From a virus, in the IMG/VR virus record IMGVR_UViG_3300021964_000039, positions 16,019-80,018 of that record: 64,000 nt of DNA. The stretch is one strand, 5' to 3'. Position 1 is the first letter of the stretch. Each line of letters begins with the position of its first letter. A program made the position numbers and the translations under genes. Below are positions 55,189-64,000 of the stretch, piece by piece. The notes under the pieces are model-generated. The model was not told the origin of the DNA. It made no database searches and saw only the letters and a program-made list of their open reading frames with translations.

Positions 55189-55864
55189 ACCATATGTATG
55201 CGAATATTGTAATACTGGATACACACGAGAAAAAACTCTTGCAGTGCATATGTGTGAACAAAAACGTAGAGCATTACAACGAAATGAAAAGAGAGTAACA
55301 CTTGGGTATTATGCATTTAACCAGTTCTATAAATTAAGCGCAGGTGCGAAAAAAGAAAAAACATATGAAGAATTTTGTAAATCTCCTTACTATAATGCTT
55401 TCGTCAAGTTTGGTTCGTTTATCAATAATGTGCGTCCCCTATATCCTGAGCGTTATATTGATCATGTTGTGACTAGCGGAGTTAAACTTGATCACTGGTG
55501 TAGAGAAGAGATGTATGAAAAATATGCTATAGAGCTTATCCTTAAAGAAGATGTTACAACAGCTTTAGAACGTAGTGTACAAACTATGTTAGAATGGGCA
55601 AGTGAGAATGAACCTGCGCCCTGGAATCATTACTTTGATCATATCAGTTTAAATAGAGCGGTTTGGCATATAAAGGACGGTAAGATTTCTCCTTGGCTCA
55701 TATTAAATTGTAGTAGCGGTAAGGAAATGCTAAGTAAATTGAATGACGAGCAACTAAATCTGATTTATCATATTATGAACCCAGAACATTGGGCTATGCG
55801 ATTTAAGAGAAATCCAAAAGATGTAGAGTTAGTCAAGGAAATAGTGAAAGAGAGTAAATTATGA
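55166..55864 (+). CDS. Zn-finger (CxxC...HxC) hypothetical protein
   Basis: YVCEYC...HMC; start ATG 55166. Confidence 0.6.
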   Translation: MTSKSNSKPYVCEYCNTGYTREKTLAVHMCEQKRRALQRNEKRVTLGYYAFNQFYKLSAGAKKEKTYEEFCKSPYYNAFVKFGSFINNVRPLYPERYIDHVVTSGVKLDHWCREEMYEKYAIELILKEDVTTALERSVQTMLEWASENEPAPWNHYFDHISLNRAVWHIKDGKISPWLILNCSSGKEMLSKLNDEQLNLIYHIMNPEHWAMRFKRNPKDVELVKEIVKESKL

Positions 55865-56289
55865 AAATACTAATTTTTGGTCTTCCGGGATCAGGAAAAA
55901 GCACCCTTGCAGAACCTTTTGCAGACTTATTAGGTGGTGTTTGGATCAATGCCGACAAAGTAAGAGAAAAATACAACGACTGGGACTTTACTCCGGAAGG
56001 ACGTATTAGACAAGCTCAACGTATGAAGCACTTGGCAGACGGAGTAGTTATGTCAGGAAAAATTGCCGTAGCAGATTTTGTATGTCCAACAGAGCAAGCA
56101 CGTTTAGAGTTTGATCCTGATTACACCGTATGGATGGATACTATTACAGAAGGTCGATTTGAAGATACGAATAAGATGTTTGAAAAACCAGCTTCATATA
56201 ATTATCATGTTGCTAATTGGTTTGATGACACACATGTTCAACTATTAGAAGTTGTCAAAAATTATATGAAGAGCAATGGAAAAAGTTGA
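55861..56289 (+). CDS. cysC: Adenylylsulfate (APS) kinase-like protein
   Basis: GLPGSGKSTLA, NAD.VR, DF..EGR, FVCP...R, FEKP. Confidence 0.75.
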   Translation: MKILIFGLPGSGKSTLAEPFADLLGGVWINADKVREKYNDWDFTPEGRIRQAQRMKHLADGVVMSGKIAVADFVCPTEQARLEFDPDYTVWMDTITEGRFEDTNKMFEKPASYNYHVANWFDDTHVQLLEVVKNYMKSNGKS

Positions 56290-56488
56290 AAAGAAACGGC
56301 ATCTTGCTAAAGCCGTCACTTGGAGAATAATAGCAAGTATTACAACAGCAATAATAGCATTTACATTTGGATTACCCCCAAAAGCAGTAGGTGCAGTATT
56401 TGTTGCAGATTTAATTATTAAGTTTTTGATGTATTATGCCCATGAAAGGTTATGGTACAAACACATAAAGTATGGAGTTAAAGAATGA
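56276..56488 (+). CDS. DUF2061-like small membrane protein
   Basis: R.LAKA.TWRI, YYAHERLW. Confidence 0.85.
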   Translation: MEKVEKKRHLAKAVTWRIIASITTAIIAFTFGLPPKAVGAVFVADLIIKFLMYYAHERLWYKHIKYGVKE

Positions 56489-56898
56489 GTTTCGATTGGC
56501 AAAAACCTACAGCAGAAATGTTAGGAAGATGGCAGCCGTGGCATGATGGTCACACTGCCTTATTTAAGAAAGCATTACTAGAAACAGGACAGGTGTGTAT
56601 TATGATACGTGACGTAGGAGGTATTGTAGGGCAAGATGCAGGCGGTGGACGTACAGTTGCCCAAACTGATAATCCATTTGATTACGACACAGTAGTTGAA
56701 AATATTAAATCAGGATTAGCAGAACATGACTTTACATACGGTGAAGAGTATGTTATAATGCAAGTGCCAAATATTGTTGACATTAGTTATGGCCGAGGTG
56801 TAGGTTATACATTTACACAACACGACTTAGGCGAAGAAATACATAATATTAGTGCTACACAAATTAGAGCTAAATTAAGAGAAGAAGGTAAACTCTAG
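56485..56898 (+). CDS. Minimal HIGH-superfamily nucleotidyltransferase
   Basis: GRWQPWHDGH, NPF, YGRGVGY, ISAT.IR. Confidence 0.8.
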   Translation: MSFDWQKPTAEMLGRWQPWHDGHTALFKKALLETGQVCIMIRDVGGIVGQDAGGGRTVAQTDNPFDYDTVVENIKSGLAEHDFTYGEEYVIMQVPNIVDISYGRGVGYTFTQHDLGEEIHNISATQIRAKLREEGKL

Positions 56899-57470
56899 TG
56901 CCGGATATTGATATAGATTTTGCAGATAGGTCTATTATACTAGATAAGATAATGCATCGTGTTGCTAAACTTGACAACGAAAAGAAGCACAACACAGGAA
57001 TCTATGTCACAGAAATTCCCCACAACCCAATAGATAAATTAAGCACAATTGATTATAAGAGTGCAGAAGAACGTGGATACTTTAAACTAGATTTTCTTAA
57101 TGTAAGTATATACAAAGACATAAGAAATGACGAACACCTAACAGAACTAATGGGTCACGAACCTATGTGGGATTTGCTTACTTACAAAGAATTTAGTGAT
57201 CAATTATTTCATGTTGCTGGACATCATACGGTATTACAAACTATGAAACCTTCAACTATTGAACAATTAGCAGCTGTATTAGCTATAATCCGTCCAGCCA
57301 AGAGGCACCTAGCGAACGAAAGCTGGGAGACGATAATGAAGGAAGTTTGGATTAAACCTGAAGAAGGTTATTACTTTAAGAAAGCACATGCGATATCATA
57401 TGCGATGGCTGTTGTTGTTCATATGAATTTAATTTGTGAAAAGATTAGTGCGCAAAGTGCTGGTAGCTAG
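56898..57470 (+). CDS. dnaE: Miniature DnaE (family C polymerase)-like protein
   Basis: PDIDIDF, KHNTGIY, GYFKLDFL, LA.IRP, YYFKKAHAISYA in only 190 aa. Confidence 0.75.
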   Translation: MPDIDIDFADRSIILDKIMHRVAKLDNEKKHNTGIYVTEIPHNPIDKLSTIDYKSAEERGYFKLDFLNVSIYKDIRNDEHLTELMGHEPMWDLLTYKEFSDQLFHVAGHHTVLQTMKPSTIEQLAAVLAIIRPAKRHLANESWETIMKEVWIKPEEGYYFKKAHAISYAMAVVVHMNLICEKISAQSAGS

Positions 57471-57838
57471 TTTTTTGGTTTCCTTACCAACTGCACACTT
57501 TTACGTTTAATTCTCTTTACCACTAGGTTATTTAAATTCACTGCAGGTCCAATTGTAACTTTTACATCTTTAGAATTCATTGTTATAATAGAATAATTTA
57601 AATTTTGTATTTCTGAGCGCAAGAAAATATTTATGGGAATCATTCGATTGGATTCCCACCACCAAGCATTTCCTAATTCAATTAATCTGTGTTTATCCTC
57701 ATCCGTTTTCAGCATGGTGTATACATACATGCTTGTCACGTATTGGTCCTGATTAATTATAATACCCACATACTCTTGGCCCCCGTAAGTAACAACGGAC
57801 AAAAATGGAAAGTTTTTTTCAATATCTTTTAATAGCAT
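57467..57838 (-). CDS. Conserved phage hypothetical protein
   Basis: EYVGII.N, WWWESNR.IPINIFL. Confidence 0.7.
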   Translation of the reverse strand: MLLKDIEKNFPFLSVVTYGGQEYVGIIINQDQYVTSMYVYTMLKTDEDKHRLIELGNAWWWESNRMIPINIFLRSEIQNLNYSIITMNSKDVKVTIGPAVNLNNLVVKRIKRKSVQLVRKPKN

Positions 57839-58670: not shown

Positions 58671-59654
58671 ATGAGTGTAATAAGTGATACAGTTCTGACA
58701 TACTTACCAGCCAAGAGGAAACAAACTCCTAGTGGTTGGCTATCCTTTAACGCACAGTGTTGCCATCACAATGGACACAGTGCAGACACTCGCGGTCGTG
58801 GTGGCTTGATTGCTAACCCAGATGGCGGCATTAGCTATCACTGCTTTAACTGCGGCTTCAAAGCAAGCTGGCAACCGGGCAGGAACTTCTCACACAAGTT
58901 GCGTAAACTCTTACAATGGATGGGAGCACCTGACGATGTAATCAACAAGGTGGCACTTGATGTAATGAGAGAGAATGAAGGCGTACAAGCAAAAGAACGT
59001 ATTGCTGAACTGCCTTCATTCAATACTGTCCCGTTGCCAGAAGATGCTGTCAAGATCACAGACATTACAGACTTTACAAAATTTAGTATGGCTGTACTTG
59101 AATATATGGCTCAACGAAGTCTGAACGTAGATGATACAGACTATTATTGGAGCCCAAGCCTAGGGTACCGTGATAGATTGATCATACCCTTCTATTACGA
59201 AGGTAGGGTGGTAGGTTGGACTGGACGTTCAGTAGTACCTGACAAGAAACCCAAGTACCTAACAGAAGTACAGCCTGGATACGTATACGGACTAGATGAG
59301 CAACGTCATAGCAAAGTGTTTGCTATTGTATGTGAAGGTCAGCTTGACGCTATACACGTAGAAGGTTGCGCACTAGGAGGGTCAGAAATTTCAGATCAAC
59401 AAGCAATGCTACTCAACAGACTACAGAAGCAGATCATTGTAGTACCTGATAGAGACAAGGCAGGGTCCAAGCTCGTTGAACGAGCAATTGAACTAGGGTA
59501 CTCAGTAAGTATGCCAGAGTGGGCACCAGACGTAAATGATATTGGAGATGCTGTTGATAAGTACGGTAGACTATATACACTGCATAGCATTGCTACTAGC
59601 ACTGATGAGTCTCCTTTGAAAATTAGATTGCGAGCAAAAAAATGGTTTACTTAA
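58671..59654 (+). CDS. gp61: DNA primase
   Basis: Zn ribbon (CC..YHCFNC), RLIIPF, GR, KY, TOPRIM motifs CEG.LDA and PDRD.AG. Confidence 0.9.
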   Translation: MSVISDTVLTYLPAKRKQTPSGWLSFNAQCCHHNGHSADTRGRGGLIANPDGGISYHCFNCGFKASWQPGRNFSHKLRKLLQWMGAPDDVINKVALDVMRENEGVQAKERIAELPSFNTVPLPEDAVKITDITDFTKFSMAVLEYMAQRSLNVDDTDYYWSPSLGYRDRLIIPFYYEGRVVGWTGRSVVPDKKPKYLTEVQPGYVYGLDEQRHSKVFAIVCEGQLDAIHVEGCALGGSEISDQQAMLLNRLQKQIIVVPDRDKAGSKLVERAIELGYSVSMPEWAPDVNDIGDAVDKYGRLYTLHSIATSTDESPLKIRLRAKKWFT

Positions 59655-59764
59655 AGAAATTATGGAATATTGTATCTTGGCCTTATGCTAAGATTAAAGA
59701 AGAAATAGAATTTAGACGAAAGGTAAAGGAACTCCGCAAGAAGGATCCGTTTATATACAAATGA
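59642..59764 (+). CDS. Small basic protein, 40 aa (not in the ORF track)
   Basis: MVYLKKLW...ELRKKDPFIYK*; overlaps both neighbours. Confidence 0.55.
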   Translation: MVYLKKLWNIVSWPYAKIKEEIEFRRKVKELRKKDPFIYK

Positions 59765-60711
59765 TAACTTGGGGTATGGTAGGTAACAGCCATGACGCTA
59801 GTCTAGCTGTATTTGATGATGATAGATTATTATGGGCAAGTCTTGCAAAAGATTTCTCCGGAATTAGTAATGACCCTAACTTCAATTGGACACAATTAGA
59901 AGTTGCACGACAGAGCTATGGACCGCCTTCTAAGGTTATCTGGTATGAGCGTCCACTACTCAAGACACTGCGTCAATGGAGAGCAGGACAGGGTTGGTTA
60001 CTAGAGGAAAATAACATAAAGAAATATCTTCAACGTTGGGGCATTGATTGCAAAATTGAGTATACTCAGCATCATGAATCTCATGCGGCTTATGCTTACT
60101 ATACACAGCCTCATGATGATTGTGCTATTATTTGCTTAGATTCAATAGGTGAATTTGAGACCCTAACCATATGGCACGGAAAGAACGGCAAGCTCAAGAA
60201 GATATACAGCCAAGGGTATCCACATAGCCTAGGACTTTTCTATAGTGCTATGACACAACGCTTAGGCCTTGTACCACAACGTGACGAATATCTTGTAGCC
60301 CAGATGGGAGAAAAAGGCGACCCTCATAAATTTATTGATATATTAAGACAAGATATTATAAATTTCAAATATGGGTCTCCAAAGATAACATTGAAAGAAA
60401 ATTTACATAGAGGGTGTCGTTGGTGGATGCCCGAAATATTAGAAAATGATTATAATAACTTAGCTGCTTCTGTACAACTAATTTTTGAATATTGTATAGT
60501 AAATCTATCGCACTATACCAAAAAACAAACAGGGTCAGAAAATTTAGCTCTAGCTGGCGGTGGAGCCCTAAATAGACAAGCAGTTGATAATATATCAAAA
60601 CAATGGAATCATGTATGGGTTCCAAAGAATCCGGGAGACCCCGGAAGTTGCATAGGCGCTGTACTTGCAAAACGGCAAACATTTGTTGATATATCCAAAG
60701 TTTGGTATTGA
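59761..60711 (+). CDS. Carbamoyltransferase (NodU/CmcH) N-terminal Kae1-like domain only
   Basis: HDAS, HHESHAAYAY, LD..GE, SLGLFY, EY, AGG.ALN, PGD.G..IGA; no C-terminal YrdC-like domain. Confidence 0.85.
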   Translation: MITWGMVGNSHDASLAVFDDDRLLWASLAKDFSGISNDPNFNWTQLEVARQSYGPPSKVIWYERPLLKTLRQWRAGQGWLLEENNIKKYLQRWGIDCKIEYTQHHESHAAYAYYTQPHDDCAIICLDSIGEFETLTIWHGKNGKLKKIYSQGYPHSLGLFYSAMTQRLGLVPQRDEYLVAQMGEKGDPHKFIDILRQDIINFKYGSPKITLKENLHRGCRWWMPEILENDYNNLAASVQLIFEYCIVNLSHYTKKQTGSENLALAGGGALNRQAVDNISKQWNHVWVPKNPGDPGSCIGAVLAKRQTFVDISKVWY

Positions 60712-60742: not shown

Positions 60743-62167
60743 ATGACTAGACAAAATACAGATTACGGCTACGACATACAAAAAGTTTATTTAGAAATGA
60801 TGCTAACAGACGCAGAGTCGTTTGTCAGATGTCAAGCAGTTTTTGACGATTCTGTTTTCGATAGAAAGCTACAACCGTCTGCAAAATTTATAAATGAATA
60901 CGTAGTAGAACATAATGCTATGCCTACATTCGATATGGTAAATGCTGCAACTGACAGTAATTTAAAGCATCCAGGTGAATTAGCAGAAAATCATTATGAC
61001 TGGCTATTAATGGAGTTTGAAACATTTAGTAGACATAAAGCATTAGAAGCAGCTATTCTTACTAGTGCTGATTTGCTTGAGAAAGGTGAATATGGTCCAG
61101 TTGAAGACTTGGTTAAGAAAGCTGTTCAAATTGGTCTTCAAAAAGATCTTGGTACTGATTATTGGGCAGATCCTAAGAGCCGTTTGGAAGCGATCAAAGA
61201 CAAGAACGGACAAGTAAGCACAGGCTGGCCTGCACTTGATAAGAAATTATTTGGTGGGTTCAACAGAGGAGAGCTGAATATATTTGCAGGTGGTAGTGGT
61301 TCGGGTAAGAGTTTGTTCTTAGCAAACTTAGGTGTGAACTGGGCACTGGCAGGATTGAATGTAATCTATTTGACATTTGAACTTTCAGAGAACTTGGTGA
61401 GTATGCGTGTAGATAGTATGACTACAGATATTCCAAGCAGAGACATCTTCAAGAGCATCGACGATGTTGAAATGAAAGTTAAGATGATTGGTAAGAAGTC
61501 AGGTGCGTTCCAAGTTAAGTATATGCCAACAGGCAAGAATGCAAACGATATACGTTCGTATTTGAAAGAATATGAGATTAAGACAGGCAAGAAAGTAGAT
61601 GTGCTACTTGTAGACTACTTGGATTTGATGCATCCTATTGCGGCTAAGATTAGTGCAGAAAACTTGTTTGTTAAGGACAAATATGTGTCAGAAGAACTAC
61701 GTAACTTGGCTATGGAACTAAACTGTTTGTTTGTTACAGCATCGCAGTTGAACAGAAGCTCAGTAGAAGAGATTGAATTTGATCACTCGCACATCTCGGG
61801 TGGTATATCTAAGATCAATACAGCAGACAACTTGATTGGTATCTTTACTAGTAGAGCTATGCGAGAGCGTGGGCGTTATCAGATACAGTTAATGAAGACA
61901 CGTTCAAGTTCGGGTGTCGGACAAAAGATTGATCTAGAGTTTGATGTAGATAGTTTACGTATACGTGACTTAGGTGAAGATGAAGAATATCAAGAATTTA
62001 ATAAGCGTAAGTCAACAGTGTTTGATCAAATTAAACGAGGCGGGCAAACTCCAGAACCTGAGCAAATAAGAGAAGATCCTAGCGAAGGTGATACAGTAGG
62101 AAAAATTAGAGCGCAAACAGATAGTACAAAGTTAAGACAGTTTCTTAATAATTTAGGTGATGAATAA
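60743..62167 (+). CDS. gp41: Replicative DnaB-like helicase
   Basis: STGW..LD, GGSGSGKS, VDYLD, TASQLNR, TAD, KTR. Confidence 0.92.
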   Translation: MTRQNTDYGYDIQKVYLEMMLTDAESFVRCQAVFDDSVFDRKLQPSAKFINEYVVEHNAMPTFDMVNAATDSNLKHPGELAENHYDWLLMEFETFSRHKALEAAILTSADLLEKGEYGPVEDLVKKAVQIGLQKDLGTDYWADPKSRLEAIKDKNGQVSTGWPALDKKLFGGFNRGELNIFAGGSGSGKSLFLANLGVNWALAGLNVIYLTFELSENLVSMRVDSMTTDIPSRDIFKSIDDVEMKVKMIGKKSGAFQVKYMPTGKNANDIRSYLKEYEIKTGKKVDVLLVDYLDLMHPIAAKISAENLFVKDKYVSEELRNLAMELNCLFVTASQLNRSSVEEIEFDHSHISGGISKINTADNLIGIFTSRAMRERGRYQIQLMKTRSSSGVGQKIDLEFDVDSLRIRDLGEDEEYQEFNKRKSTVFDQIKRGGQTPEPEQIREDPSEGDTVGKIRAQTDSTKLRQFLNNLGDE

Positions 62168-63377: not shown

Positions 63378-64000
63378 ATGGCAACAGATTTAGAAAACAT
63401 ACAAAGGCTATTAGATAGATTCAAAAGGCCTATCCCACCCGGAGACGAATATCAAAATCGTTTAGCTGAAGAATTTGAGCTCATTCTCTCTCAGCGATTC
63501 ACTGATTACTTCCTACAAATCTGCGACATTATAGACATTACCTCGGACCTAACTCACATGACACGTGGGTCAGCAGGGTCGAGCCTAGTCTGCTACTTGT
63601 TGGGTATTACAGATGTAGATCCAATAGAGTGGCGCATACCTGTGGCACGGTTCATGAACCCTTTGAGGGACGACTTACCGGACGTGGATATAGACTTTGA
63701 ACATCATCGACAGACGGAAGTCATGGAAAGGATATTCCGCAAATGGCCCGGCAAGACCGCACGACTAAGCAACTACGTCACCTACAAAGAAAAGTCAGCT
63801 CGTAGAGAAGCTGCTAAACGTTTAGGTGCCACAGGTAATCTTCCACGCAACTTTACCTACGAATCAGTAGGAGTTGATCCCAAAGAAGCCAAGCGTATAG
63901 AACGCAAGCTCATGGGCAAGAAGAGAGCAATATCAAAACACTGTGGAGGCATCGTAATGTTCACTAGGCAACTACCTAAATCACTAATATCACAAGACAA
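63378..64000 (+). CDS. dnaE: PHP-less DnaE-like DNA polymerase, runs off the window end (not in the ORF track)
   Basis: RL.EE..LI....F.DYFL, TRGSAGSSLVCYLLGIT.VDP, RFMNP.R.DLPDVDIDF, SKHCGG. Confidence 0.9.
   Translation, partial: MATDLENIQRLLDRFKRPIPPGDEYQNRLAEEFELILSQRFTDYFLQICDIIDITSDLTHMTRGSAGSSLVCYLLGITDVDPIEWRIPVARFMNPLRDDLPDVDIDFEHHRQTEVMERIFRKWPGKTARLSNYVTYKEKSARREAAKRLGATGNLPRNFTYESVGVDPKEAKRIERKLMGKKRAISKHCGGIVMFTRQLPKSLISQD

Follow-up and report, generated by a model that had tools for sequence, protein, structure and literature searches.

The window analysed in this study comprises the last 64 kilobases (kb) of the 80-kb IMG/VR virus contig IMGVR_UViG_3300021964_000039, which stems from an uncultured estuarine/marine giant phage lineage. 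CheckV assigned the contig a completeness of 22%, and since this share of the genome is contained in 80 kb, a jumbo phage genome of about 360 kb can be calculated. The subject of the analysis is a gene at positions 56898..57470 (plus strand) for a protein of 190 amino acids (aa), hereafter mini-DnaE. The protein almost certainly belongs to the family of C-terminal (Mg2+- and template-binding) subunits of a split minimal DNA polymerase III (Pol III) alpha. The split enzyme was described from sequence for group 2.2 (T4-related, RaK2/PA5oct/Atu_ph07-like) jumbo phages (Iyer, Anantharaman, Krishnan, Burroughs, Aravind 2021, Viruses 13:63, PMC7824862).

Gene, start codon and motifs of mini-DnaE

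By direct reading of the sequence, the GTG start codon of mini-DnaE is the first possible start codon past an in-frame stop, so that the protein cannot begin upstream of (M)PDIDIDF. The start codon shares one base with the stop codon of an upstream 137-aa gene in the stop/start overlap TAGTG (56896..56900, plus strand), as in translational coupling, and the sequence AGAAGG is located 9 nucleotides (nt) upstream of the start. A scan for sigma-70 promoters and terminators remained at chance level (25 found vs. 21 expected). The GC content of the gene (0.34) is the same as that of its flanks and thus gives no sign of a recent transfer.

All motifs lie on the plus strand. The protein starts with the PDIDID motif (residues 2-7, 56901..56918), in which D3 and D5 are the metal-binding residues and D7 is the third aspartate of the motif. 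The palm strand motif KHNTG (residues 30-34 with H31 and G34, 56985..56999) falls into a strand formed by residues 30-36 in the structure model, and the KLDFL motif (residues 63-67, 57084..57098) provides the third catalytic aspartate, D65. We take D3 and D5 to be the counterparts of the catalytic residues D401 and D403 of the Escherichia coli enzyme, and D65 to be that of D555. PolC enzymes keep only the first two aspartates of PDxDxD. In the finger region, LAAVLAIIRP (residues 124-133) leads into the IRPAK motif (R132, P133, K135; 57288..57302), and YYFKKAHAISYA (residues 158-169) contains the KKAHAISYA motif (57378..57404), of which K161, H164 and A169 are at least 90% conserved. An original prediction, made by a model from the letters of the window and a list of open reading frames (ORFs), had described a 190-aa ORF with three catalytic aspartates which starts exactly at MPDxDxD and carries the motifs KH.xG, K.DFL, LA..RP and Y.F.K.HA.SYA. 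Its coordinates were exact, D3, D5 and D65 were confirmed, and both the position of the start and the complete set of motifs hold.

Family membership, fold and conservation

Mini-DnaE matched PHROG 11778 ("DNA polymerase") with an E value of 2e-60 over nearly the whole profile (residues 3-182 vs. positions 8-194 of 197), a resemblance far beyond chance. By tblastn, homologues with 36-50% identity were found in 96 isolate-phage records, all of which belong to jumbo phages of the RaK2/121Q/GAP32/PA5oct/Atu_ph07/Phosso type; they include RaK2 ORF124, PA5oct gp264 and Atu_ph07 gp074. The protein is 67-77% identical to hundreds of relatives in IMG/VR, and the metagenomic family, when grouped at 90% identity, comprises at least 8000 clusters, while 417 representatives remain at 50%. 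From the marine phages to RaK2, the length of the C subunit is alike (about 185-200 aa).

For the analysis of conservation, 81 family members with identities down to about 30% were aligned. D3, D5, K63, D65, R132 and P133 were invariant, while D7, H31, G34, K135, K161 and H164 were conserved in at least 90% of the sequences. A HMMER comparison with DnaE1 of Mycobacterium tuberculosis placed residues 1-12, 51-135 and 148-171 of mini-DnaE on residues 413-424, 567-664 and 763-788 of the chain. Thereby, PDIDID was aligned to MPDIDIDF of DnaE1 (residues 413-420), KLDFL to KMDFL and KKAHAISYA to FNKSHAAGY.

The AlphaFold2 model calculated from the 81 sequences reached a mean predicted local distance difference test (pLDDT) score of 95.9, and a Foldseek search of the PDB with this model returned Pol III alpha for all of the top 16 matches. 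In VIA-align, the Z scores were 9.4 for Pol III alpha of Thermus aquaticus (Taq; residues 461-841), 9.3 for M. tuberculosis DnaE1 and 8.9 for E. coli Pol III alpha (residues 400-781), and the next unrelated chain followed at 3.2.

As the 190 residues lie over E. coli residues 400-781 in VIA-align, and the HMMER alignment consists of separate islands, the thumb has been deleted together with a part of the fingers, and nothing follows after the latter. Only the second half of the Pol-beta-like palm is present. By HMMER and VIA-align, the thumb, the complete fingers, the beta-clamp-binding motif and the OB domain are absent from mini-DnaE. A Pfam scan of the protein gave nothing above the gathering threshold, neither PF07733 nor PF17657; for the finger domain PF17657, positions 50-79 matched residues 107-136 with 16.1 bits, which is below the cut-off of 22. 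The PHP domain (PF02811) was found neither in mini-DnaE nor anywhere else on the 80-kb contig. The expectation from the letters that the thumb and finger segments are largely deleted, and that PHP domain, RGS motif, clamp-binding and OB region are missing, therefore agrees with the Pfam, HMMER and VIA-align results.

Purifying selection on the C-subunit gene

Orthologues from IMG/VR (67-77% identical) were inspected for integrity, and 79 out of 80 contained an intact ORF of 185-196 aa starting at [M]PDxDxD. Their start codons were ATG (71), TTG (7) and GTG (1). The ratio of nonsynonymous to synonymous substitutions according to Nei-Gojobori (dN/dS) had a median of 0.14 with a 5-95% range of 0.08-0.19 in 397 pairs with unsaturated dS. 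Purifying selection acts on the gene, and it is not a pseudogene; the relaxed selection or frameshifts named beforehand as signs of a pseudogene were not seen in these orthologues.

The N-terminal partner gene in relatives

The RGS-containing part of the palm was looked for in the isolates RaK2, PA5oct, Atu_ph07, Phosso and Vibrio phage 2.275.O, and in two near-complete marine contigs, G001 (237 kb) and G006 (275 kb). Every complete or long relative checked had a separate gene for about 170-185 aa which matched only positions 18-98 of PF07733, i.e. the RGS part. This gene corresponds to PHROG 11127 and is located 30-180 kb away from the C subunit: the distance to the C half is 33 kb for RaK2 ORF162, 44 kb for PA5oct gp196, 182 kb for Atu_ph07 gp316 and 30 kb in Vibrio phage 2.275.O, and the N half is also present in Phosso. 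On G001, whose C subunit is 68% identical to mini-DnaE, the positions are 61.2 kb for the C gene, 183.1 kb for the N gene and 210.8 kb for a family B polymerase; on G006, with the opposite strand, they are 237.8 kb, 117.4 kb and 87.8 kb, respectively. In both contigs the N gene thus follows 120-122 kb downstream of the C subunit. The N protein of G001 ends with ...GLDWREFLR and the C protein begins with MPDIDIDF, two segments which are contiguous in cellular DnaE.

The numbers of phage records with a C half and with an N half agree almost exactly for each host genus, namely 34/34 for Escherichia, 8/8 for Erwinia, 8/8 for Salmonella, 4/4 for Yersinia, 4/4 for Xanthomonas and 11/10 for Klebsiella. 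Matches were also obtained in two closely named sister phages of Alishewanella, Slicko01 (OQ508956.1, C half) and Slickus01 (OQ508957.1, N half), whose size of 141 kb is below the usual cut-off of 200 kb for jumbo phages. Because the halves match in these genomes, the split enzyme is probably not restricted to jumbo phages.

Natural fusions of N and C part were found as well. The proteins P0233, P0272 and P0273 (375-376 aa) represent rare metagenomic clusters from contigs of 2.4-5.9 kb, and a single PF07733 match (positions 12-121) crosses the fusion junction. The AlphaFold2 model of the fusion had a pLDDT of 95 and a predicted template modelling (pTM) score of 0.91, with low confidence only for the 10-residue joint, and its structure matched Pol III alpha and PolC with an E value of 2e-8.

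Pieces of an intein were detected neither at the C half, which starts with M-P-D and lacks IntC or a Cys, Ser or Thr at position +1, nor at the N half of G001, which has no IntN tail (...DWREFLR). Without intein halves and with a proline at +1, trans-splicing is not possible and was ruled out, so that an assembly of the two proteins must be non-covalent. The suggestion that mini-DnaE is one piece of a split polymerase without an intein is thus supported by partner genes, co-occurrence, fusions and the lack of intein pieces. The proposed search for an RGS-containing N-terminal fragment was successful in the relatives, while on the contig itself it led only to an independent DnaE at 63378.

The two halves are separated within the Pol-beta-like catalytic core, with the G-S nucleotide-binding loop on one side of the break point and the DxD strand on the other. 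In enzymes with a Pol-beta fold, the G-S loop binds the triphosphate. Because the break separates this loop from the DxD strand, neither half should be active alone, judging from what is known of the superfamily.

A second, contiguous DnaE downstream

At 63378..63998 (plus strand), 5.9 kb downstream of mini-DnaE, another dnaE gene begins that is cut by the end of the contig. It encodes a contiguous, PHP-less DnaE (PF07733 positions 14-225, E value 7e-41) with RGS and its own PDVDIDF motif. In relatives the protein has 543-548 aa and contains the whole PF07733 region and the finger domain, again without PHP. Full-length copies of the 548-aa DnaE are present on the related contigs L101 (10076-11722) and L066 (10755-12386), and the best match of this approximately 550-aa, PHROG 405-like protein in the isolate database was the uncultured huge phage LR756508.1. 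The ORF was considered as the missing N half of mini-DnaE and was ruled out in this role by its own PDVDIDF and by the full PF07733 and finger domains in the relatives. Pairwise similarity between the 548-aa DnaE and the C subunit was confined to the 8-residue PDxDIDF motif.

In at least 11 related contigs, which are scattered over the C-subunit tree, the C subunit is followed 5-10 kb downstream by the 548-aa DnaE, which is absent from the near-complete relatives G001 and G006. Among the relatives this DnaE is much more conserved than the C subunit (80-97% vs. 67-77% identity). The split mini-Pol III and a contiguous DnaE therefore coexist in one replication module. According to the published description, other Pol III domains are lacking in phages with the split version (PMC7824862). 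This remark is qualified by the coexistence seen here, which also prompts the question how many polymerases are in use in such a phage.

Many independent metagenomic contigs of the clade end within the 548-aa DnaE gene or a few kb after it (L095, L100, L110, L111, L118, L131 and this window). This suggests a recurrent assembly break, caused either by near-identical sequence shared between strains or by a variable region downstream.

The replication module and neighbouring genes

The gene is part of a replication module of the T4 type, as in group 2.2 jumbo phages. The window shares the order mini-DnaE, convergent gene of about 120 aa (PHROG 11637), virion structural protein, primase and DnaB helicase with Atu_ph07, PA5oct, RaK2, Phosso and Vibrio phage 2.275.O. 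In the window, the convergent gene for 123 aa is located at 57467..57838 on the minus strand and overlaps the stop codon of the C-subunit gene by 4 nt; it matched PHROG 11637 (function unknown) with an E value of 1.9e-31 and had no match in Pfam. In the five isolates, this reverse gene directly follows the C subunit and can serve as a synteny marker. Since the marine phages and all five isolates keep this arrangement, the gene may be functionally linked to the mini-polymerase. Synteny with the relatives also applies to the DNA primase at 58671..59654 (plus strand; PHROG 47, E value 1.8e-40) and the DnaB-like replicative helicase at 60743..62167 (plus strand; PHROG 19, E value 2.5e-69). A family B polymerase (PF00136) was not matched on the 80-kb contig; in G001 and G006 it is located about 150 kb from the C subunit, a distance that would fall outside the contig studied here.

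Two further observations were made in the vicinity. Between primase and helicase, a 316-aa protein (59761-60711, plus strand) matches only the first 323 of the 528 positions of PHROG 1601 (Nol-like carbamoyltransferase), and the isolate relatives have either no gene or other genes in this slot. Upstream of mini-DnaE, the 230-position profile PHROG 10255 ("kinase") is covered by two separate ORFs, 55861-56289 (positions 2-118) and 56485-56898 (positions 123-228), with a hydrophobic 70-aa ORF (56276-56488) between them. From the reading frames, the single chain of other phages seems to be divided here between two genes with an insert.

Interpretation and alternatives

Taken as a whole, we consider it probable that the gene encodes the C subunit of a group 2.2 split Pol III alpha which is inactive alone, has an intein-free N partner and works as an accessory DNA polymerase. 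The C subunit carries the three metal-binding palm aspartates (D3, D5, D65) and the shortened finger helices (IRP, KKAH..YA), and an N protein of about 180 aa would contribute the R-G-S nucleotide-binding loop along with the beginning of the palm, so that two chains would build the active site. The C subunit would not be active alone, and formation of a non-covalent heterodimer with the N protein, without an intein, is likely; the modelled folding of the fusion as one Pol III core (pTM 0.91) may be regarded as indirect support for such an assembly. The resulting core of about 370 aa, in which the PHP domain, the thumb, the clamp-binding motif and the OB domain would all be missing, would most likely be an accessory, poorly processive (distributive) DNA polymerase for gap filling, primer hand-off or repair beside the main replicase. 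For the phages described before, a cooperation of the split enzyme with the family B enzyme in the synthesis of one strand or in repair has been suggested (Iyer et al., PMC7824862).

Several points weigh against this explanation. A polymerase without a thumb and without clamp contact may bind primer-template poorly, and searches of the literature brought up neither a biochemical or genetic test of any family member nor a paper on the activity of the enzyme after 2021. A contiguous DnaE in the lineage could make a split enzyme redundant. Furthermore, the gene of the N subunit is present neither on the 80-kb contig, which represents 22% of the genome, nor on 26 contigs carrying the 548-aa DnaE, none of which reaches more than about 37 kb downstream. 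As no such contig extends to the expected distance of about 120 kb, this is a gap in coverage and not a shown absence. When the ends of contigs G005 and G029 and the starts of G009 and G010 were mapped onto G001, a gap of about 16 kb without overlap was left, and a second query with the 548-aa DnaE gave only short contigs, by which the gap to the N subunit was not bridged. These data would also be in line with a C subunit that has lost its N partner and works together with, or is being replaced by, the 548-aa DnaE, either by docking to it or as a non-catalytic DNA-binding factor. The position of the 548-aa DnaE 5-10 kb downstream in at least 11 related contigs and its absence from both near-complete relatives with an N subunit fit such a loss. 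Nevertheless, we regard it as very unlikely, since the 548-aa DnaE has a complete palm of its own with PDVDIDF and no more than the 8-residue motif in common with the C subunit. In addition, all key residues are kept in 12 of 12 C subunits from contigs with the 548-aa DnaE, at an uncorrected ratio of nonsynonymous to synonymous differences (pN/pS) of 0.28. The lineages with the 548-aa DnaE are scattered over the tree, and the N-bearing G001 is nested among them with C subunits 87-88% identical. Weak, circumstantial evidence comes from the samples with the 548-aa DnaE, which hold N-subunit contigs at matching divergence. Given the nesting of G001, the kept key residues and, to a lesser degree, these samples, and because the N subunit is ancestral to the whole group, it is presumably encoded off-contig in this phage as well.

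Of the readings in which the partner is kept, one assumes that the heterodimer forms and is not a templated polymerase, acting instead as a terminal transferase or a primer-independent synthase, or producing a nucleotide signal or a DNA modification. Many other nucleotidyltransferases of the Pol-beta fold have such non-templated roles. This would explain the missing thumb, clamp-binding motif and OB domain, and the weak, non-significant structural matches of the fusion just below the C-family are Cid1-type terminal uridylyltransferases. Moreover, relatives already possess a family B polymerase (PMC7824862), and the lineage has the contiguous DnaE. However, the finger residues of Pol III alpha that face template and deoxynucleoside triphosphate (R132-P133, K161, H164) are invariant or nearly so, the gene always resides in the primase-helicase module, and significant structural matches were obtained only with replicative polymerases of the C-family, so that this reading appears improbable, albeit worth considering. 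Much less can be said for a 190-aa protein that works alone as a stand-alone nucleotidyltransferase, which had been offered as the alternative in the original prediction and is disfavoured. It holds all three carboxylates, folds confidently by itself in silico and has no visible partner gene on the 80-kb contig, yet the triphosphate-binding G-S loop resides on the N subunit, the split separates this loop from the DxD strand within the catalytic core, and N and C genes are found together across phage genera, in some lineages as a fusion; its chances are accordingly slight. A decaying remnant of a full-length dnaE, i.e. a pseudogene fragment, might be supposed from a length of less than one fifth of cellular DnaE and the loss of most domains. 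This reading is ruled out for practical purposes by 79 of 80 orthologues being intact with the same start, a dN/dS of 0.14 and invariant catalytic residues, and also the constant length of about 185-200 aa from marine phages to RaK2 and the at least 8000 clusters at 90% and 417 at 50% identity in metagenomes speak against it.

Beyond the two-chain accessory polymerase as preferred here, the coexistence with the 548-aa DnaE invites the speculation of a T4-type replisome run on C-family enzymes, in which the 548-aa DnaE displaced the family B replicase and the mini-Pol III was kept for a specialised task. Such a displacement and division of labour between the two DnaE enzymes seems rather unlikely to us at present.

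Comparison with known systems

The ORF 56898-57470 adds one more member to a family published in 2021, which is very abundant in aquatic metagenomes and represents the smallest known C-family polymerase core, with an active site divided between two separately encoded chains. The split enzyme has been put forward as a model of the ancestral Pol III module. The natural fusions P0233, P0272 and P0273 are the obvious single-chain candidates for expression and structural studies.

With the C subunits of RaK2, PA5oct and Atu_ph07, mini-DnaE shares the family, the length, the PDxDxD start, the invariant residues, the replication module and the convergent downstream gene. It differs from them in that it comes from an uncultured lineage, that N subunit and family B polymerase are not on the contig, and that a contiguous 548-aa DnaE is present in addition. 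In comparison to cellular Pol III alpha (E. coli 2HNH, Taq 2HPI/3E0D, M. tuberculosis DnaE1 5LEW) and PolC, the same palm, the three aspartates and the first finger helices are found, and the structural Z scores to cellular Pol III alpha are 8.9-9.4 over 180-188 residues. In contrast to the cellular enzymes, however, 190 aa stand for residues 400-781 of the E. coli protein, the RGS part of the palm is on another protein, and there is no tau-binding part.

The split DnaE of cyanobacteria (DnaE-n/DnaE-c), whose parts are joined by a split intein, is likewise a C-family polymerase made from two distant genes. The phage enzyme has no intein halves and a proline at +1, its break point is different, and it is minimal instead of full length. 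Split polymerases are also known from family B, such as gp43A/gp43B of T4-like phages. In these large phages, too, a phage polymerase is encoded in pieces that assemble after translation, but it belongs to another family, and its pieces are adjacent with mobile elements between them, whereas the halves considered here are 30-180 kb apart in the relatives and no mobile element is found at the break. In MIJ3 and PA5oct, for example, the family B polymerase is split by an intein and an HNH gene (PMC6892783).

The PHP-less phage DnaE of about 550 aa, as found from 63378 to the contig end, shares the C-family palm and fingers, the lack of PHP and the replication module with mini-DnaE, and differs by being a single chain that combines RGS and PDVDIDF with a thumb region and a full finger domain.

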